DNA of 22,351 bases from a virus, in the UHGV virus genome UHGV-0193089; one strand, 5' to 3'. Positions 11,543-18,028 of this stretch are shown one piece after another. Under the pieces are notes generated by a model. That model saw only the letters and a program-made list of their open reading frames with translations. It ran no database searches and was not told the origin of the DNA. The position numbers were made by a program, and so were the translations under genes. Positions within the stretch are counted from its first letter, which is position 1. Each line of letters opens with the position of its first letter.

Positions 11543-12185
11543 TGGCAGCAAATACCGAAATATTTGGGTAGTTGGCGATCTGCACGGATGCTACACGAAC
11601 ATGATGAAAAAACTGGAGACGATAGGATTCGACACCAAAAAAGACCTGCTTATCTCGGTTGGCGATTTGGTTGATCGCGGTACAGAGAACGTCGAATGTA
11701 TGGAATTAATCACATTCCCCTGGTTCAGAGCTGTACGTGGAAACCATGAGCAAATGATGATTGATGGCTTATCAGAGCGTGGAAACGTTAATCACTGGCT
11801 GCTTAATGGCGGTGGCTGGTTCTTTAATCTCGATTACGACAAAGAAATTCTGGCTAAAGCTCTTGCCCATAAAGCAGAAGAACTTCCGTTAATCATCGAA
11901 CTGGTGAGCAAAGGTAAAAAATATGTCATCTGCCACGCCGATTATCCTTGTGACGAATACGAATTTGGAAAGCCAGTTGATCCTCAGCAGGTAATCTGGA
12001 ACCGCGAACGAATCAGTAACTCACAAGACGGGATCGTGAAAGAAATCAAAGGCGCGGACACGTTCATCTTTGGTCATACGCCAGCAGTGAAACCACTTAA
12101 ATTTGCCAACCAAATGTATATCGATACCGGCGCAGTGTTCTGCGGAAACCTCACATTGATTCAGGTACAGGGAGAAGGCGCATGA
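11520..12185 (+). CDS. Ser/Thr protein phosphatase (lambda PPase type, calcineurin-like metallophosphatase)
   Basis: Met26 of track ORF; GDLHGCY, GDLVDRG and GNHE metallophosphatase motifs; matches the lambda 221-aa phosphatase from memory. Confidence 0.9.
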
Positions 12186-12805
12186 GACTCGAAAGCGTAG
12201 CTAAATTTCATTCGCCAAAAAGCCCGATGATGAGCGACTCACCACGGGCCACGGCTTCTGACTCTCTTTCCGGTACTGATGTGATGGCTGCTATGGGGAT
12301 GGCGCAATCACAAGCCGGATTCGGAATGGCTGCATTCTGCGGTAAGCATGAACTCAGCCAGAACGACAAACAAAAGGCTATCAACTATCTGATGCAATTT
12401 GCACACAAGGTATCGGGGAAATACCGTGGCGTGGCAAAGCTTGAAGGAAATACTAAGGCAAAGGTACTGCAAGTGCTCGCAACATTCGCTTATGCGGATT
12501 ATTGCCGTAGTGCCGCTACGCCGGGCGCAAGGTGCAGAGATTGCCACGGTACAGGCCGTGCGGTAGATATAGCAAAAACAGAGCAGTGGGGGAGAGTTGT
12601 TGAGAAAGAGTGCGGAAGATGCAAAGGCGTCGGCTATTCCAGGATGCCAGCAAGCGCCGCATATCGCGCTGTAACGATGCTAATCCCAAACCTTACCCAA
12701 CCCACCTGGTCACGCACTGTTAAGCCGCTGTATGACGCTCTGGTGGTGCAATGCCACAAAGAAGAGTCAATCGCAGACAACATTTTGAATGCGGTCACAC
12801 GTTAG
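12182..12805 (+). CDS. Q: late-gene antiterminator Q (lambda type)
   Basis: 207 aa; [27 protein letters not shown]... and the CRDCHGTG...CGRCKG zinc motif match lambda Q as recalled; followed by a pR'-like promoter. Confidence 0.92.
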
Positions 12806-13119: not shown

Positions 13120-13238
13120 CCCGTGCATATCGGTCACGAACAAATCTGATTACTAAACACAGTAGCCTGGATTTGTTCTATCAGTAATCGACCTTATTCC
13201 TAATTAAATAGAGCAAATCCCCTTATTGGGGGTAAGAC

Positions 13239-13562
13239 ATGAAGATGCCAGAAAAAAATGACCTGTTAGCCGCCATTCTCGCGGCAAAGGAACAAGGCAT
13301 CGGGGCAATCCTTGCGTTTGCAATGGCGTACCTTCGCGGCAGATATAATGGCGGTGCGTTTACAAAAACAGTAATCGACGCAACGATGTGCGCCATTATC
13401 GCCTGGTTCATTCGTGACCTTCTCGACTTCGCCGGACTAAGTAGCAATCTCGCTTATATAACGAGCGTGTTCATCGGCTACATCGGTACTGACTCGATTG
13501 GTTCGCTTATCAAACGCTTCGCTGCTAAAAAAGCCGGAGTAGAAGATGGTGGAAATCAATAA
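13239..13562 (+). CDS. S: holin S (class I), dual-start MKM motif
   Basis: 107 aa; [36 protein letters not shown]... matches lambda S as recalled; Met1/Met3 antiholin/holin starts. Confidence 0.95.
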
Positions 13563-14022
13563 TCAACGTAAGGCGTTCCTCGATATGCTGGCATGGTCAG
13601 AGGGAACTGATAACGGACGGCAGAAAACCAGAAATCATGGTTATGACGTCATTGTAGGAGGAGAGCTATTCACTGATTACTCCGATCACCCTCGCAAACT
13701 TGTCACGCTAAACCCCAAACTCAAATCAACAGCCGCCGGACGCTATCAGCTTCTTTCCCGTTGGTGGGATGCTTACCGTAAACAGCTTGGACTGAAAGAT
13801 TTCTCTCCGAAAAGTCAGGACGCTGTAGCTCTGCAGCAGATTAAAGAGCGTGGTGCTTTACCGATGATTGACCGCGGCAGTATTCGTCAGGCAATCGACC
13901 GTTGCAGCAATATCTGGGCGTCGTTACCTGGTGCAGGTTACGGTCAGTATGAACATAAAATCGGTGACCTGATTGCCCGATTTAAAAAAGCTGGTGGGGT
14001 AGTAAATGAAGCTGAGATATAA
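13546..14022 (+). CDS. R: endolysin R (lytic transglycosylase)
   Basis: 158 aa; [49 protein letters not shown]... matches lambda R as recalled. Confidence 0.95.
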
Positions 14023-14398
14023 GCTGGTTATTGTTGCCTTCGTTGTTACCGTCATTGGTTCCTTCATCTGGTCTGCTGGGCATTACTACAGCAAATATCA
14101 GCACGAAAAGGAGCGTGCTGATGAGGCTGTACGAAATGCTGAATCAGCAACTGCCATTACCCGTAACGTTCTGCAATCACTGCAAATCATCAATACAGTT
14201 ATAGAGGCTAACCAGCATGCAAAAGAGCAGATCGCACTGGACGCATCGGGAGCCTCGGCTGATATCCGGGTTGCTGTTGCGAATGATGATTGCACTAATC
14301 GCCCTGTCCCTGCTGGCGCAGTTAAGCGGCTGCAACAATTCGCGAACGGTCTACGTCAAAGTGCCGGTAGTCCCGTTACCGGCCAGCCTGACGGCTGA
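14006..14398 (+). CDS. Rz: i-spanin (Rz-like): N-terminal TM helix plus coiled-coil periplasmic domain
   Basis: 130 aa directly after R; hydrophobic LVIVAFVVTVIGSFIW segment then a charged helical region; contains the start of an out-of-frame lipoprotein ORF. Confidence 0.8.
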   Translation: MKLRYKLVIVAFVVTVIGSFIWSAGHYYSKYQHEKERADEAVRNAESATAITRNVLQSLQIINTVIEANQHAKEQIALDASGASADIRVAVANDDCTNRPVPAGAVKRLQQFANGLRQSAGSPVTGQPDG

Positions 14399-14540
14399 CA
14401 CCCCGCAACCGGAAATCCCTGACAACCTGACGTGGGGCCAGAGCCTAGATTTAAACGTCAGTCTCCTATCAGCGCTTGGGCAGTGCAACCGGGATAAGGC
14501 AGATATTAGGCAAGCTGTAAAGAAACAAGCGGGCCAATAA
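14283..14540 (+). CDS. Rz1: o-spanin (Rz1-like outer-membrane lipoprotein)
   Basis: +1-frame ORF starting inside Rz; signal peptide MMIALIALSLLAQLSGC with lipobox LSGC; Pro-rich mature part. Start uncertain (track ORF begins at 14217). Confidence 0.65.
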   Translation: MMIALIALSLLAQLSGCNNSRTVYVKVPVVPLPASLTADTPQPEIPDNLTWGQSLDLNVSLLSALGQCNRDKADIRQAVKKQAGQ

Positions 14541-14546
14541 GCCCGC
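14529..14546 (-). terminator. candidate terminator hairpin for the antisense moron transcript
   Basis: GCGGGC/GCCCGC 6-bp stem with a 6-nt loop containing the Rz1 stop; on the minus strand followed by UUGUUUCU; sits 21 nt past the ClpP-like stop. Confidence 0.35.
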
Positions 14547-14567
14547 ACTTATGGAGGATTCAAAATG

Positions 14568-15248
14568 TTACAGAACCCACCACCTGATCGAATCTGTGGG
14601 TATGGTTGCAGCCTCGACATTCTGGATCATACCCAACTCGGTGGCCCTTCCCGGATCAATGATGGTTGCAGAAGTGATCAAATTAGCCCAGTCAATTTGC
14701 TCATCTGGGGCTACAGCGAGAGCCTCGATATTCATCACCTGCACAAATCTTTGCAAGTCGTCATCCAGACATGCCGCCCATTCCCTAAGCCTGAGGTGAT
14801 CTGCTTGTGGGGCGGCAAATCCCCAATGTAAAGGATGTAATAAAAATCGCGAGAGAGGATTAGCAAACCGCTCAGATCCAGCCATGAAAATAACATTTGC
14901 TATAGATTCCACGTTACTAAGGTTATGTGTCTTCACCTTTACAGGAAGAGACTTAAGAAAGTTGTATGCGGTAAAACCTGCAACGGTATCTCCACCTTTA
15001 CTAGAGATGTAAATCCTGATCTCAGAGGCTGGTTGGTTAGGGCTTGATATCGCTTTGAGGCAAACATCCATAAGGCTGGATACAGAAGCAACTGTCACAT
15101 CTGTCATGAAGTGTACGGTATGGATCATTTCAGTTTCCCAGAGATATGCCGCAATTGGCATTTTCATAATGCACATAAAGTGAAAGGTTTTCTGCGTAAA
15201 CCCGGATGAAATAATTTCATGAAGTAAGGCATTACAGAAGCCCTTCAT
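14568..15248 (-). CDS. ClpP-fold (S14/S49-like) serine peptidase homolog encoded antisense to the late operon
   Basis: 226-aa track ORF; by-eye alignment to ClpP: IRIYISSKGGDTVAGF vs IYLYINSPGG..TAG, and AGSERFANPLSRFLLHP vs [20 protein letters not shown]; candidate Ser (VESIA), His (LLHPL), Asp (QIDWA). No clear SD at 15248; true start may be Met25-30. Confidence 0.75.
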   Translation of the reverse strand: MKGFCNALLHEIISSGFTQKTFHFMCIMKMPIAAYLWETEMIHTVHFMTDVTVASVSSLMDVCLKAISSPNQPASEIRIYISSKGGDTVAGFTAYNFLKSLPVKVKTHNLSNVESIANVIFMAGSERFANPLSRFLLHPLHWGFAAPQADHLRLREWAACLDDDLQRFVQVMNIEALAVAPDEQIDWANLITSATIIDPGRATELGMIQNVEAATIPTDSIRWWVL

Positions 15249-15590
15249 TGAGGGGCTTCGATAATGAAACCGGAATTTATTCTGGGTAACCAGTTACGGC
15301 AGTACAGCGAAACAACCCAAGCCAGTAAGTGGGGAAATAACACTGGCAGCCACTGAAAGATGAACCTCCTGCCTTATGGCAAAAAAGATTCTTTGTGGTG
15401 GCGGACTGATGGAAAGACATCGGTTATTGCAGAGACCATTCAATGAGTGGTCTCGACAATGGCTTATACCCTACACGGGATAACTTAACTGATATCCCCA
15501 CAAGCGGATAAAGAGATTCTCAATGTCAGGAATCTACTTTTAGTCCTAGTAATGATGAACTAGATATCAGCTGAGTCGCTTGGGTGGTGA

Positions 15591-15827
15591 TTACGATTCT
15601 GCTTCAAACTCAGAAATTAGTTGATGAACACGTTCAGTATATGATGGGTTAGAACCTAGAAACTCTTCCACTGTCTGAATGGTTTCATCACCCTCCCATT
15701 CAAAATGGCTCACAGGTGACGAATGACCAGCCCTGACTTGGTAGGAGCCATTGTCCAATTTGTCCAGGAATATATAAGTTTCATTATCATGACCTGTATT
15801 TCGGTAAAAAATTTGCTTTGAGTTCAT
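15591..15827 (-). CDS. small acidic hypothetical protein (78 aa)
   Basis: Track ORF; ATG at 15827-15825 with GAGGAT SD 8 nt upstream; AT-rich like the neighbouring moron; start only 24 bp from the divergent terS ATG. Confidence 0.45.
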   Translation of the reverse strand: MNSKQIFYRNTGHDNETYIFLDKLDNGSYQVRAGHSSPVSHFEWEGDETIQTVEEFLGSNPSYTERVHQLISEFEAES

Positions 15828-15851
15828 TAAAGAAATCCTCTAGAGAAAACT

Positions 15852-16403
15852 ATGGCACTCACCGACAAACAAGAGATGTTCTGTCGCGAGTACCTCATCG
15901 ATTTAAACGCCACACAAGCGGCTATTCGGGCGGGGTACAGCGCAAAGACAGCTAACCGTACCGCATCCGAAAACATGTCAAAACCTGACATCCAATTCAG
16001 AATCGCCGAACTGAAAGCGCAACGCAATGATCTTGTTGGTATTAATGCAGAATATGTGCTTAATCGCCTTATTGAAATCGACCAGATGGATGTGCTCGAC
16101 ATTCTCCTGCAAAACGGTGAGCTAAAGCCCATTAAAGACTGGCCTAAGGTATGGCGCACAACGCTATCAGGAATGGATGTCGTGGAGATGGTATCCGCAG
16201 ATAGTGCTGCTCTCCTGAAGAAAATCAAATGGCCTGATAAGGTTAAAAACCTTGAGTTGCTTGGGCGTCATGTTTCTGTTCAGGCGTTTAAAGACAACGT
16301 CAAAAATGAAGTGACTGGCGCTGATGGAGGACCAGTCAGAACAGAAATTACCAACTTAACGCCGGAGCAGGCTGCAGAGGCGTATAGAAAAATGATGGGC
16401 TAA
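15852..16403 (+). CDS. terminase small subunit (Terminase_2/P27-type)
   Basis: 183 aa; [34 protein letters not shown]... is the characteristic N-terminus of this TerS family as recalled. Confidence 0.85.
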
Positions 16404-16405
16404 GT

Positions 16406-18028
16406 ATGCCGTTACCATTCCCCTTCGATTTTAAACATCCTGATTACCAGATGGTTTTTGAATGGCGGATGGAACGCCTACAGCGCATTCGCCAGAATCC
16501 TGAAATATTGCCTGCACTAAAACAGTTTTACCGAACTAATCCGGCTCAGTTCATCATCGACTGGGGCATGACAACGGACCCACGTAATATTGATTATGGC
16601 CTGCCGGTGACCATTCCGTTTTTACTCTTCCCTAAGCAGGAGGAGTGGATCCACTGGATTATGGAACGCTGGGGTAATCGGGAGAATGGTATTACCGAAA
16701 AATCCCGTGAAATGGGGCTCAGTTGGACCGCGATCGGACTGGCCTGCTCGCTTTGTCTCTTCAACAAAGAAATGGTTATCGGTTTCGGCTCCCGTAAAGA
16801 GGAATACGTCGACAGCACTGGTGACCCGAAAGCATTGTTCTGGAAGGCACGCAAGTTCGTGGAAACACTGCCCATCGAGTTTCGCGGTTCGTGGGACGAG
16901 AAGAAGCATGCGCCTTATATGCGCGTTGAGTTTCCAGATACTGGCGCGGTTATCAAAGGCGAGGCTGGCGACAATATCGGTCGTGGTGACCGTACCACGC
17001 TCTACCTGGTGGATGAGGCTGCATTCCTCCAGCGTCCTCTGCTGATTGACGCGGCGCTGTCGCAAACCACCCGCTGCCGTATCGACCTGAGTTCGGTTAA
17101 CGGCATGGCGAACCCGTTCGCGCAGAAGCGTCACGGCGGGAAGATACCGGTATTCACATTCCACTGGCGGGATGATCCTCGCAAGGATGAAGAGTGGTAT
17201 CGCAGGGAATGCGAGAAAATCGATAATCCGGTGGTGGTGGCACAGGAACTTGATCTGAACTACAGCGCATCAGCGGAAGGCGTCCTGATTCCATCCGAAT
17301 GGGTACAGGCTGCCGTTGATGCGCATATCAAACTGGGTATCCAGCCAACAGGCAAACGACTTGGCGCGATGGATGTCGCTGATGAAGGCAGGGACAAAAA
17401 TGCCTTTTCCACCCGTCATGGCTTCCTCCTGGAAAATGTGCGGGAATGGTCTGGTGTGGGTAGCGACATTTATCAGTCCGTCGAGAAGGTCTTCGGTTTT
17501 TGCGAACAGGACAACCTCGAAGAGTTTCGCTTTGACGAGGACGGGCTGGGCGCTGGCGTTCGCGGCGATGCACGCGCTATCAACGAACTGCGTAACGCTG
17601 CGCGCCGACCGTCAATACTCGCCACACCGTTTCGAGGTAGTGGCGCGGTATTTGATCCGGACGACGAAGCGGTGCGCGGTGACAACGGACAGGCCGCCCG
17701 CCTGAACAAGGACTTCTTCGCTAACGCCAAAGCCCAGAGCTGGTGGCGGTTACGTAAACTTTTTCAGAATACCTGGCGCGCCGTGGTTGAAGGTATGGAT
17801 TACAACCCGGACGAAATCATCTCAATCAGCAGTAGCATGGCACTCAAAGATAAACTCATCATCGAGCTTTCGCAGCCGACCTATTCCATTAATGGTGTGG
17901 GGAAAATCGTTATTGATAAACAGCCTGATGGAACCCGGTCGCCAAACCTTGCCGACTCGGTGATGATCAGCTACGCGCCAATGAATTCAGCCCTGAATAT
18001 CTGGGAGCTGCTAGGGAGACAGGCCTGA
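16406..18028 (+). CDS. terminase large subunit
   Basis: 540 aa immediately after TerS; Walker-B-like LYLVDEAAF; size and position typical of TerL. Confidence 0.9.

Follow-up and report, generated by a model that had tools for sequence, protein, structure and literature searches.

The stretch of DNA considered here is the 22,351-nt viral genome UHGV-0193089 (hereafter the window), which comprises the late region of a lambda-like temperate phage. Positions ~15221-15519 of the window form a conserved stretch of the late operon of lambda-like enterobacterial phages, lambdoid and P22-like alike, which is non-coding and lies in sense orientation. From left to right this island consists of a hairpin (hairpin A), the dead 3' remnant of a rha gene (B block), a constrained block of 130 nt (C block), a second hairpin (hairpin D) and the first packaging gene's leader (D-tail). 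Hairpins A and D are members of a large family found after many unrelated small accessory genes, for which we tentatively favour a role as a cis-acting signal in the late transcript. The initial annotation of the window had described 15249-15590 as an apparently non-coding spacer inside a single moron, holding a 7-bp inverted repeat and perhaps the promoter/operator of a ClpP-like gene or a small RNA.

All or part of the island is matched by 220 phage records at 80–97% identity, including HK97, HK022, mEp234, P22, Sf6, Sf101 and BTP1; in Stx2 phages only the 3' part of the island matches. The distribution covers IMG/VR and collections of phages, plasmids and E. coli genomes, and the phages are those of Escherichia, Shigella, Salmonella, Klebsiella and Citrobacter. 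At least part of the island is present in 2279 of 5426 complete E. coli genomes (~42%). In the annotated loci that were inspected, it always lies in late-operon sense, after the lysis genes and a gene for Rha, KilA-N or another small protein, and before HNH, DUF2560 or terminase genes. A 16-nt degenerate pattern was also run against genome contigs; among the matches listed were chance ones in unrelated phyla.

A coverage profile of window positions 13200-16500 against ~200 fetched related loci sets the island apart from its surroundings. The holin and endolysin genes are common to ~70 loci, positions 14000-15200 (with the ClpP-like gene) to none, the conserved element to up to 198, positions 15550-15840 (with an open reading frame (ORF) of 78 amino acids) to one, and the small terminase gene terS to 17. 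The one locus that shares the 78-amino-acid ORF (L049) lacks the ClpP-like gene. The ClpP-like gene and the 78-amino-acid gene are therefore two independent minus-strand insertions, one to the left of the island and the other inside its right end, and what had been taken for the interior of one moron is instead a conserved backbone island. Homology breakpoints between phages gather at the hairpins (15220-15230, 15253, 15266, 15421-15445 and 15461).

Hairpin A (15230-15266, + strand; inverted repeat I1) reads CATTACA-GAAGCCC-ttcattgag-GGGCTTC-GATAATG, and hairpin D (15426-15460, + strand; inverted repeat I2) reads ATTGCA-GAGACCA-ttcaatgag-TGGTCTC-GACAAT. Hairpin A is built of a lower stem of 4–5 A/U base pairs, a 2x2 internal loop (CA/GA) and an upper stem of 7–10 bp, and the dot-bracket structures of the two hairpins are identical, with folding energies of −21.0 kcal/mol for A and −19.5 kcal/mol for D. 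The repeat reported initially is indeed present within hairpin D, as GAGACCA (15432-15438), 9 nt and TGGTCTC (15448-15454); hairpin A, which was missed, begins ahead of the start of the annotated spacer at 15249. By itself the 7-bp repeat is not beyond chance, with 22.5% of 342-bp shuffles holding at least one perfect 7-bp inverted repeat with a loop of 3–20 nt. It is nevertheless considered real, because it is part of a longer repeat with arms of 17 nt (15426-15442 and 15444-15460), has a second copy at 15230-15266 and is conserved, with compensatory changes, in hundreds of phage loci. The loose pattern ATTRCA-N15-35-GAYAAT has two matches in the 22 kb, which are hairpins A and D, both on the + strand, vs 0.39 expected by chance. 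A covariance model of the hairpin family (R1), which had both hairpins in its training set, scores A at 51.8 bits and D at 59.8 bits and finds nothing else in the window, the next best score being 16 bits. The fold of the 300-nt region is more stable than that of shuffled sequences on the + strand (z = −6.3) and less markedly so on the − strand (z = −3.5).

Both hairpins have the G+C-rich stem-loop that is one criterion for intrinsic terminators, and neither has a U-tract 3' of the stem: the tails are GAUAAUGA and GACAAUGG, and the letters that follow the 7-bp repeat are GACAATGG, in agreement with the initial annotation. A near-identical copy of hairpin A stands alone in Klebsiella phage ST16-OXA48phi5.2, and a copy with a compensated stem stands alone in phiP27; in both phages the lone hairpin separates the last gene of the lysis region from the first packaging gene.

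Comparison between loci reveals that the feet of the hairpin (ATTRCA and GAYAAT), the CA/GA internal loop (2x2) and the apical stem, which includes a U.G wobble, are kept, and the middle of the stem alters on both sides. The stem alleles include GAGACCA/TGGTCTC, GAGGCCA/TGGCCTC, AAGCCCA/TGGGCTT and AAAGCCA/TGGCTTT, and also GAAGCCC/GGGCTTC, GCAGCCC/GGGCTGC and GCAGGCA/TGCCTGY. In a first set of 56 distinct hairpins, picked by a pattern that fixes the feet, 99.0% of cells are paired vs 30–54% with slid partners, six pairs are altered on both sides, and none of 500 shuffles matches the observed score. In a second set of 41 distinct sequences, picked solely by the downstream D-tail, 98.3% of cells are paired vs 31–57% when slid, five pairs are altered on both sides, and the score is likewise beyond all of 500 shuffles. 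The third set, from a scan of IMG/VR with free stem positions, comprises 121 hairpins with 37 stem alleles; of its 222 free stem positions, 196 are Watson-Crick pairs, 22 are G.U, two are A.C and two are other mismatches. Two of the three sets were picked with patterns that fix the feet or the loop. Across homologous loci the hairpin thus gives a strong covariation signal, and the earlier view of the repeat as an RNA structure and not an intrinsic terminator is upheld. The signal emerged only when hairpins of different contexts were compared: RNAalifold on 35 full-length copies gave almost no covariation, sequences within a type barely varying.

Where only one side of an upper-stem pair has changed, the result read on the + strand is nearly always G.U and hardly ever A.C. 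Since transitions should yield G.U and A.C equally, this excess points to the + strand, most simply the late transcript, as the molecule under selection.

Of the 121 IMG/VR hairpins, 97 start 0–19 nt past the stop codon of a same-strand ORF of at least 60 amino acids, and the sequence 3' of the hairpins is highly varied. The 87 distinct proteins encoded upstream (taken from IMG/VR loci L330-L448) are unrelated, with a mean column identity of 9%; they match the Pfam families DUF2560 (20), Acb2/Tad1 (6), Rha (5), DUF826 (5), ORF11CD3 (3) and Gp49/66 (1), and for 44 of these small proteins the Pfam scan gave no match. Two or three hairpins occur on one strand, spaced by 210–990 nt, in 24 of 119 loci. 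In other phages the interval between the C block and the D-tail holds inserts of 100–600 bp, each closed by a hairpin of its own, and these include a Gp49/66-family gene in Sf6 and a gene annotated as an anti-CRISPR in phage Huey.

The hairpin family is apparently undescribed, the literature searched containing no account of it. Rfam 15 at gathering thresholds gave no match anywhere in the window, and at E values of up to 10 within 15100-15700 only sar RNA fell over a hairpin (hairpin A), at a chance-level 13.9 bits vs a threshold of 43 bits. A tRNA/tmRNA scan found neither.

The sequence between the hairpins is made up of two parts with different histories. The B block (15267-15295, + strand) aligns with the ends of the P22 and Sf101 rha genes (Phage_pRha) over their last ~30–35 nt, up to the stop codon. 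Two haplotypes of it occur, and no other part of the element is as diverse (0.16 per site). A decayed gene, which would have spoken against the initial annotation, is thus found for these ~30 nt only and not for the remainder. The C block (15296-15425, + strand) begins directly past the rha stop codon where rha is present, is retained in phages without rha, and is absent in ~30% of phages that bear the D-tail. Its diversity is 0.027–0.034, with that of the adjacent B block 5–6 times higher, and its divergence is ~3% both where the 320 nt upstream are 0.5% divergent and where they are 26% divergent. Because its divergence ignores that of the upstream DNA and is low compared with the B block, the C block is under purifying selection, tighter than on the neighbouring coding DNA and on the dead B block.

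This constraint is not that of a protein. There is no ORF of 60 codons or more in 15249-15590, the 342 bp bracketed by the minus-strand ORFs 14568-15248 and 15591-15827, and the short ORFs within it are 21–49 codons long. All of them are altered by start- or stop-changing variants and indels, so that the initial call of the region as non-coding is confirmed. For example, 15362 G>A removes the start of a 28-codon ORF, 15377 T>A creates a stop in the same ORF and removes the start of a 35-codon ORF, and the frame is shifted by an additional A in the A-run and by an indel near 15292. Variable sites show no third-position bias. On these grounds a reading as small coding ORFs was ruled out, including P22 'orf25' and a minus-strand coding sequence of phage Chlobot. 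'Hypothetical proteins' are annotated here in P22 (NC_002371.2, 40329-40406, orf25), Sf101 (38187-38261) and Chlobot (45779-45967), and these small annotated proteins are probably not genes; P22 orf25 is doubtful because its ATG lies in the loop of hairpin D and is absent in alleles with other loops.

The C block is instead the homologue of most of P22G, a 204-nt + strand RNA with no assigned function from a 2026 small-RNA sequencing study of P22 infection (PMC13397905). P22G starts in the last part of rha, takes in the C block and reaches the 5' arm of hairpin D; infected cells and vesicles both contained it (PMC13397905). A stretch of its published sequence is homologous to the window, on the same strand and at the same genomic place, and P22 40180-40368 is 93% identical to window 15296-15482. 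The suggestion that a small RNA might be encoded here thereby gains some outside support, for the sequence up to the 5' arm of the repeat. A full-text literature search by sequence returned the P22G paper alone, with its one 2026 RNA-sequencing table, and a transcriptome study of prophage BTP1 names no non-coding RNA at this place (PMC7067206). Known prophage small RNAs were considered as candidates and rejected, with svsR lying in cI, the Pas small RNAs and STnc100 upstream of the lysis genes, and STnc6030 in the tail region of BTP1. There is no promoter-like site in or upstream of the element by consensus scan. An RNA from this place would most likely derive from the long late transcript by processing.

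Two further features of the C block may be mentioned. The heptamer ACCUCCU at 15364-15370 falls in a predicted unpaired internal loop, and a given heptamer is expected ~0.02 times per 300 nt. 16S rRNA carries an identical heptamer at its 3' end, and the copy here could be an anti-Shine-Dalgarno-like seed or a coincidence. On the minus strand, 15365-15386 forms a weak terminator-like hairpin, UUUUUUGCC-AUAA-GGCAGGAGG followed by UUCAUCUUUC, which is kept in HK97 (L001, 1644-1665) and could stop leftward transcripts of morons inserted on the right. Motifs tried and dropped are a CsrA-type GGA enrichment noted by eye (6–7 GGA vs ~5 expected), a Chi-like site also noted by eye (TGTGGTGG is not Chi), and a likeness of GAUAAUGAAACCGG to the 3' handle of the type I-E CRISPR repeat, which was judged coincidental.

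The D-tail (15461-15512, + strand) begins GGCTTATACCCTACACGGGATAACTTAACTGATATCCC and ends GGATAAA. In loci free of the right-hand insertion (L116, L067, L105, L279 and L288) it runs via ...GGATAAACGGAGCACAAATA into the ATG of terS, the continuation in such phages being ...TATCCCTTTTAACGGATAAACGGAGCACAAATA-ATG, and in Sf6 it leads into the DUF2560 gene. Because it passes straight into these genes, the D-tail is the conserved leader of the first gene of the packaging module. It is found in Stx2 phages and in lambda-Nu1-type, HK97-type and P22-type packaging contexts. The TTTT run that follows TATCCC is lost in the window copy; position 15502 is T in 88 of 91 sequences. In locus L030 (reverse strand, ~11990-12640), the ORF past the D-tail opens with about 11 codons typical of terS (MAKLTDKQELF) and then diverges, and a terS-like start (KQLTPKQELFCREYL) follows ~570 nt further on, which looks like an insertion that captured the terS start.

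The mechanism that we favour, with slightly less than even confidence and by analogy with known intercistronic hairpins, is that of a cis-acting RNA signal for processing or stability of the late transcript. The hairpins would serve as post-transcriptional signals within this transcript: very stable stem-loops without a U-tract may block 3'-to-5' exonucleases, mark processing sites or both, and could in this way set the stability and expression of the gene directly upstream and separate accessory cassettes from packaging genes. The structured segment between the hairpins would then persist as a stable RNA fragment, as P22G may do in P22. Selection for pairing is needed to account for covariation over 37 or more stem alleles. 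A specific binding partner is suggested by the feet, the internal loop and the apical stem, all of them conserved, and the sequence constraint on the C block suggests a further function of its own.

Several points weigh against this explanation. The role in stabilisation or processing is drawn by analogy with intercistronic hairpins such as REP elements, and a pure exonuclease barrier needs no conserved feet, internal loop or apical U.G. G.T wobble is tolerated in single-stranded DNA too, which makes a + strand DNA hairpin another possible object of selection. Pairing is looser in the lower stem, where the set chosen by the D-tail includes the variants ATCACA and ATTCCA. The counts ignore kinship, and with descent and recombination the shuffle statistics overstate independence, which the many stem alleles partly offset. 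The C block folds only modestly when taken alone (z = −1.9) and is without covariation because it hardly varies, and P22G, known from one small-RNA sequencing study, may be a functionless decay intermediate.

Among the alternatives, most weight attaches to insulating terminators, unlikely as these are. The hairpins, with the D-tail hairpin and its TTTT, would stop polymerase that lacks the late antiterminator, so that in a lysogen transcripts from accessory promoters would be kept from the terminase and head genes, and polymerase modified by Q/gp23 would read through in lytic growth. The location directly upstream of the first packaging gene fits this, as does selection on the sense strand, which a terminator hairpin would experience too; an A-run and a short U-run flank certain stem alleles (AAAGCCA...UGGCUUUGAUAAU), the consensus D-tail folds as GGGAUA...UAUCCC followed by UUUU (−9.4 kcal/mol), and terminators of unclear role are predicted within the late operon of phage L (PMC8022706). 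The window hairpins, however, have no U-tract, a terminator scan called nothing on the + strand of 14400-16000 or at the HK97 and Sf6 hairpins (where no promoter was called either), and the D-tail hairpin is weak, absent in P22- and ST64T-type variants and deprived of its TTTT in the window copy. Next in probability, and also unlikely, is a trans-acting small RNA, which can coexist with the favoured cis-acting signal: the late transcript would release the C block, alone or together with hairpin D, to regulate mRNAs of host or phage through pairing or through titration of a protein. The detection of P22G in infected cells and vesicles (PMC13397905), a C block that is more conserved than adjoining coding DNA and is kept where rha is lost, and the predicted unpaired ACCUCCU at 15364-15370 are in line with such an RNA, but it has no promoter-like site upstream, no entry among the non-coding RNAs of the BTP1 study (PMC7067206), no matching Rfam family and no known target, its fold is modestly better than shuffles, and ~30% of D-tail phages do without the C block. 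A more novel reading, in which the hairpin is the mark of a cassette system of temperate enterobacterial phages, each small accessory or anti-defence gene of the late region carrying a 3' hairpin whose conserved feet, internal loop and apical stem are read by a protein, is rather improbable; recognition would be as RNA, for expression control, or as single-stranded DNA, for attC-like capture and shuffling, and the C block would be a late regulatory RNA. The breakpoints gathered at the hairpins, the cassette-like arrays, the inserts of 100–600 bp with a hairpin each between the C block and the D-tail, and one stem allele that occurs both ahead of the B block and directly ahead of the D-tail might also be expected of a DNA recombination linker, in which the hairpins are short patches of homology or single-stranded DNA hairpins recognised by an enzyme for cassette exchange (G.T being tolerated there). 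We regard this as distinctly improbable, as homologous recombination favours identity and not covarying stems, the invariant blocks are only 6–9 nt, no dedicated recombinase gene is linked to the hairpins, and the tight tie to the upstream gene, both its stop codon and its strand, within a highly expressed operon is most simply a feature of RNA.

The remaining two alternatives are both very improbable, and to the same degree. The promoter/operator of the ClpP-like gene, as proposed initially for a private moron spacer, would lie in the right place, upstream of that ORF on the minus strand; the gene needs some promoter, and a weak or non-sigma-70 one would escape a consensus scan. Yet the sequence rightward of 15221 is common to ~200 loci without the ClpP-like gene, selection on the hairpins acts on the opposite (+) strand, and promoter prediction by a consensus scan of 14400-16000 found no sigma-70-like site on either strand, vs 3.0 expected in shuffles. 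The segment could also be a leftover with no function, a young and decaying 3' untranslated region or pseudogene remnant that hitch-hikes with its neighbours; the B block truly is a gene remnant, and 90–97% identity is common in recently exchanged lambdoid modules. Such a leftover is difficult to reconcile with a B block that is 5–6 times as diverse as the C block, with a C block that is ~3% divergent even where the upstream genes differ by 26%, and with stem alleles whose covariation requires selection for pairing.

The genes on either side are those of a late region. The holin and endolysin genes and a DUF2570-type protein are encoded at 13239-14540 (+ strand). The left-hand insertion bears the ClpP-like ORF (14568-15248, − strand), which matches Pfam CLP_protease over amino acids 71–150 (profile positions 43–123). 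Homology to ~70 related phages ends at 13997. None of the ~200 related loci has the ClpP-like gene, the DUF2570-type protein or the rest of the sequence up to 15200, and the phage collection gave no long match to 14000-15200. On the minus strand, 14546-14529 forms a strong terminator-like hairpin 3' of the stop codon of the ClpP-like ORF, which fits a self-contained moron. The nominal ATG of this ORF (15246-15248) falls within the hairpin A loop, and the first ~9 codons run antisense to the conserved island. At its outset the Pfam match aligns amino acid 71 with profile position 43, and translation therefore probably starts at an internal methionine, M25, M28 or M30 (15176, 15167 or 15161); no clear Shine-Dalgarno sequence precedes these three.

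The right-hand insertion (15513-15851, 339 bp, − strand) bears the 78-amino-acid ORF (15591-15827, − strand), for which Pfam and PADLOC scans returned no match, and separates the D-tail leader from terS (15852-16403, + strand; Pfam Terminase_2, E = 2.7e-39). Because it sits between the conserved leader and the gene, terS in this phage is without the ACGGAG ribosome-binding region usual in its relatives. A 540-amino-acid ORF (16406-18028) follows at the position of the large terminase.

The island is widespread: ~42% of complete E. coli genomes have at least part of it, as do model phages with decades of study behind them, yet it has no Rfam family. By its sequence and structure the hairpin marks where small accessory genes of the late region end and could help in mining for anti-defence genes, the genes so marked including Acb2/Tad1 and one annotated anti-CRISPR. 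It also offers a testable handle on cassette expression within a 20-kb antiterminated transcript. For annotation, the nominal start of the ClpP-like ORF would need correction, and P22 'orf25' and several 'hypothetical proteins' at this place are probably not genes.

Among known systems, REP/BIME elements are E. coli intercistronic hairpins that act as barriers to mRNA decay, with a GTAG foot, an associated RAYT transposase and many chromosomal copies. The hairpins described here are similar in being imperfect palindromes of ~35 nt in an operon just past stop codons, with a conserved 'foot' beside a stable stem, selection on the transcribed strand and no U-tract. They differ in that the sequence is unrelated, with feet ATTRCA/GAYAAT and no GTAG foot, in that no RAYT transposase is linked to them (no search aimed at it was made), and in that the annotated copies examined are all in late regions of phages and prophages near Rha, KilA-N, Gp49 or terminase genes and not dispersed over the chromosome. 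Integron attC sites have RYYYAAC/GTTRRRY cores and a linked IntI integrase. They resemble the hairpins as imperfect inverted repeats at the 3' end of small promoterless cassettes in fixed orientation, conserved in the outer boxes and variable between them, but the hairpins lack the RYYYAAC/GTTRRRY cores, and there is no integrase among the annotated neighbours (lysis, Rha/KilA, HNH and terminase genes).

Intrinsic terminators in phage late operons, such as those predicted in phage L (PMC8022706), share the G+C-rich sense-strand stem-loop between late genes and, with some hairpin alleles, the A-run and short U-run; the window copies and most alleles differ in having no U-tract, and the terminator scan was negative. 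The P22 pid moron is at the same kind of site as the 78-amino-acid ORF, to the right of the element and against the late operon, but the inserted gene is another one and pid lies outside the conserved element (PMC3573128, PMC8835761). P22G is related by sequence: window 15296-15439 is ~93% identical to the part of it that lies 3' of the rha stop codon. Strand and location agree as well, both sequences being flanked by the lysis/rha region and the packaging genes. P22G starts ~60 nt inside rha, of which the phage in the window keeps only a remnant of ~30 nt; P22G is defined by read coverage alone and its window homologue by sequence alone, and the P22G paper describes no hairpin family, covariation or wide distribution (PMC13397905). 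In kind, the hairpin family is an intercistronic structured RNA element and constitutes no new category.

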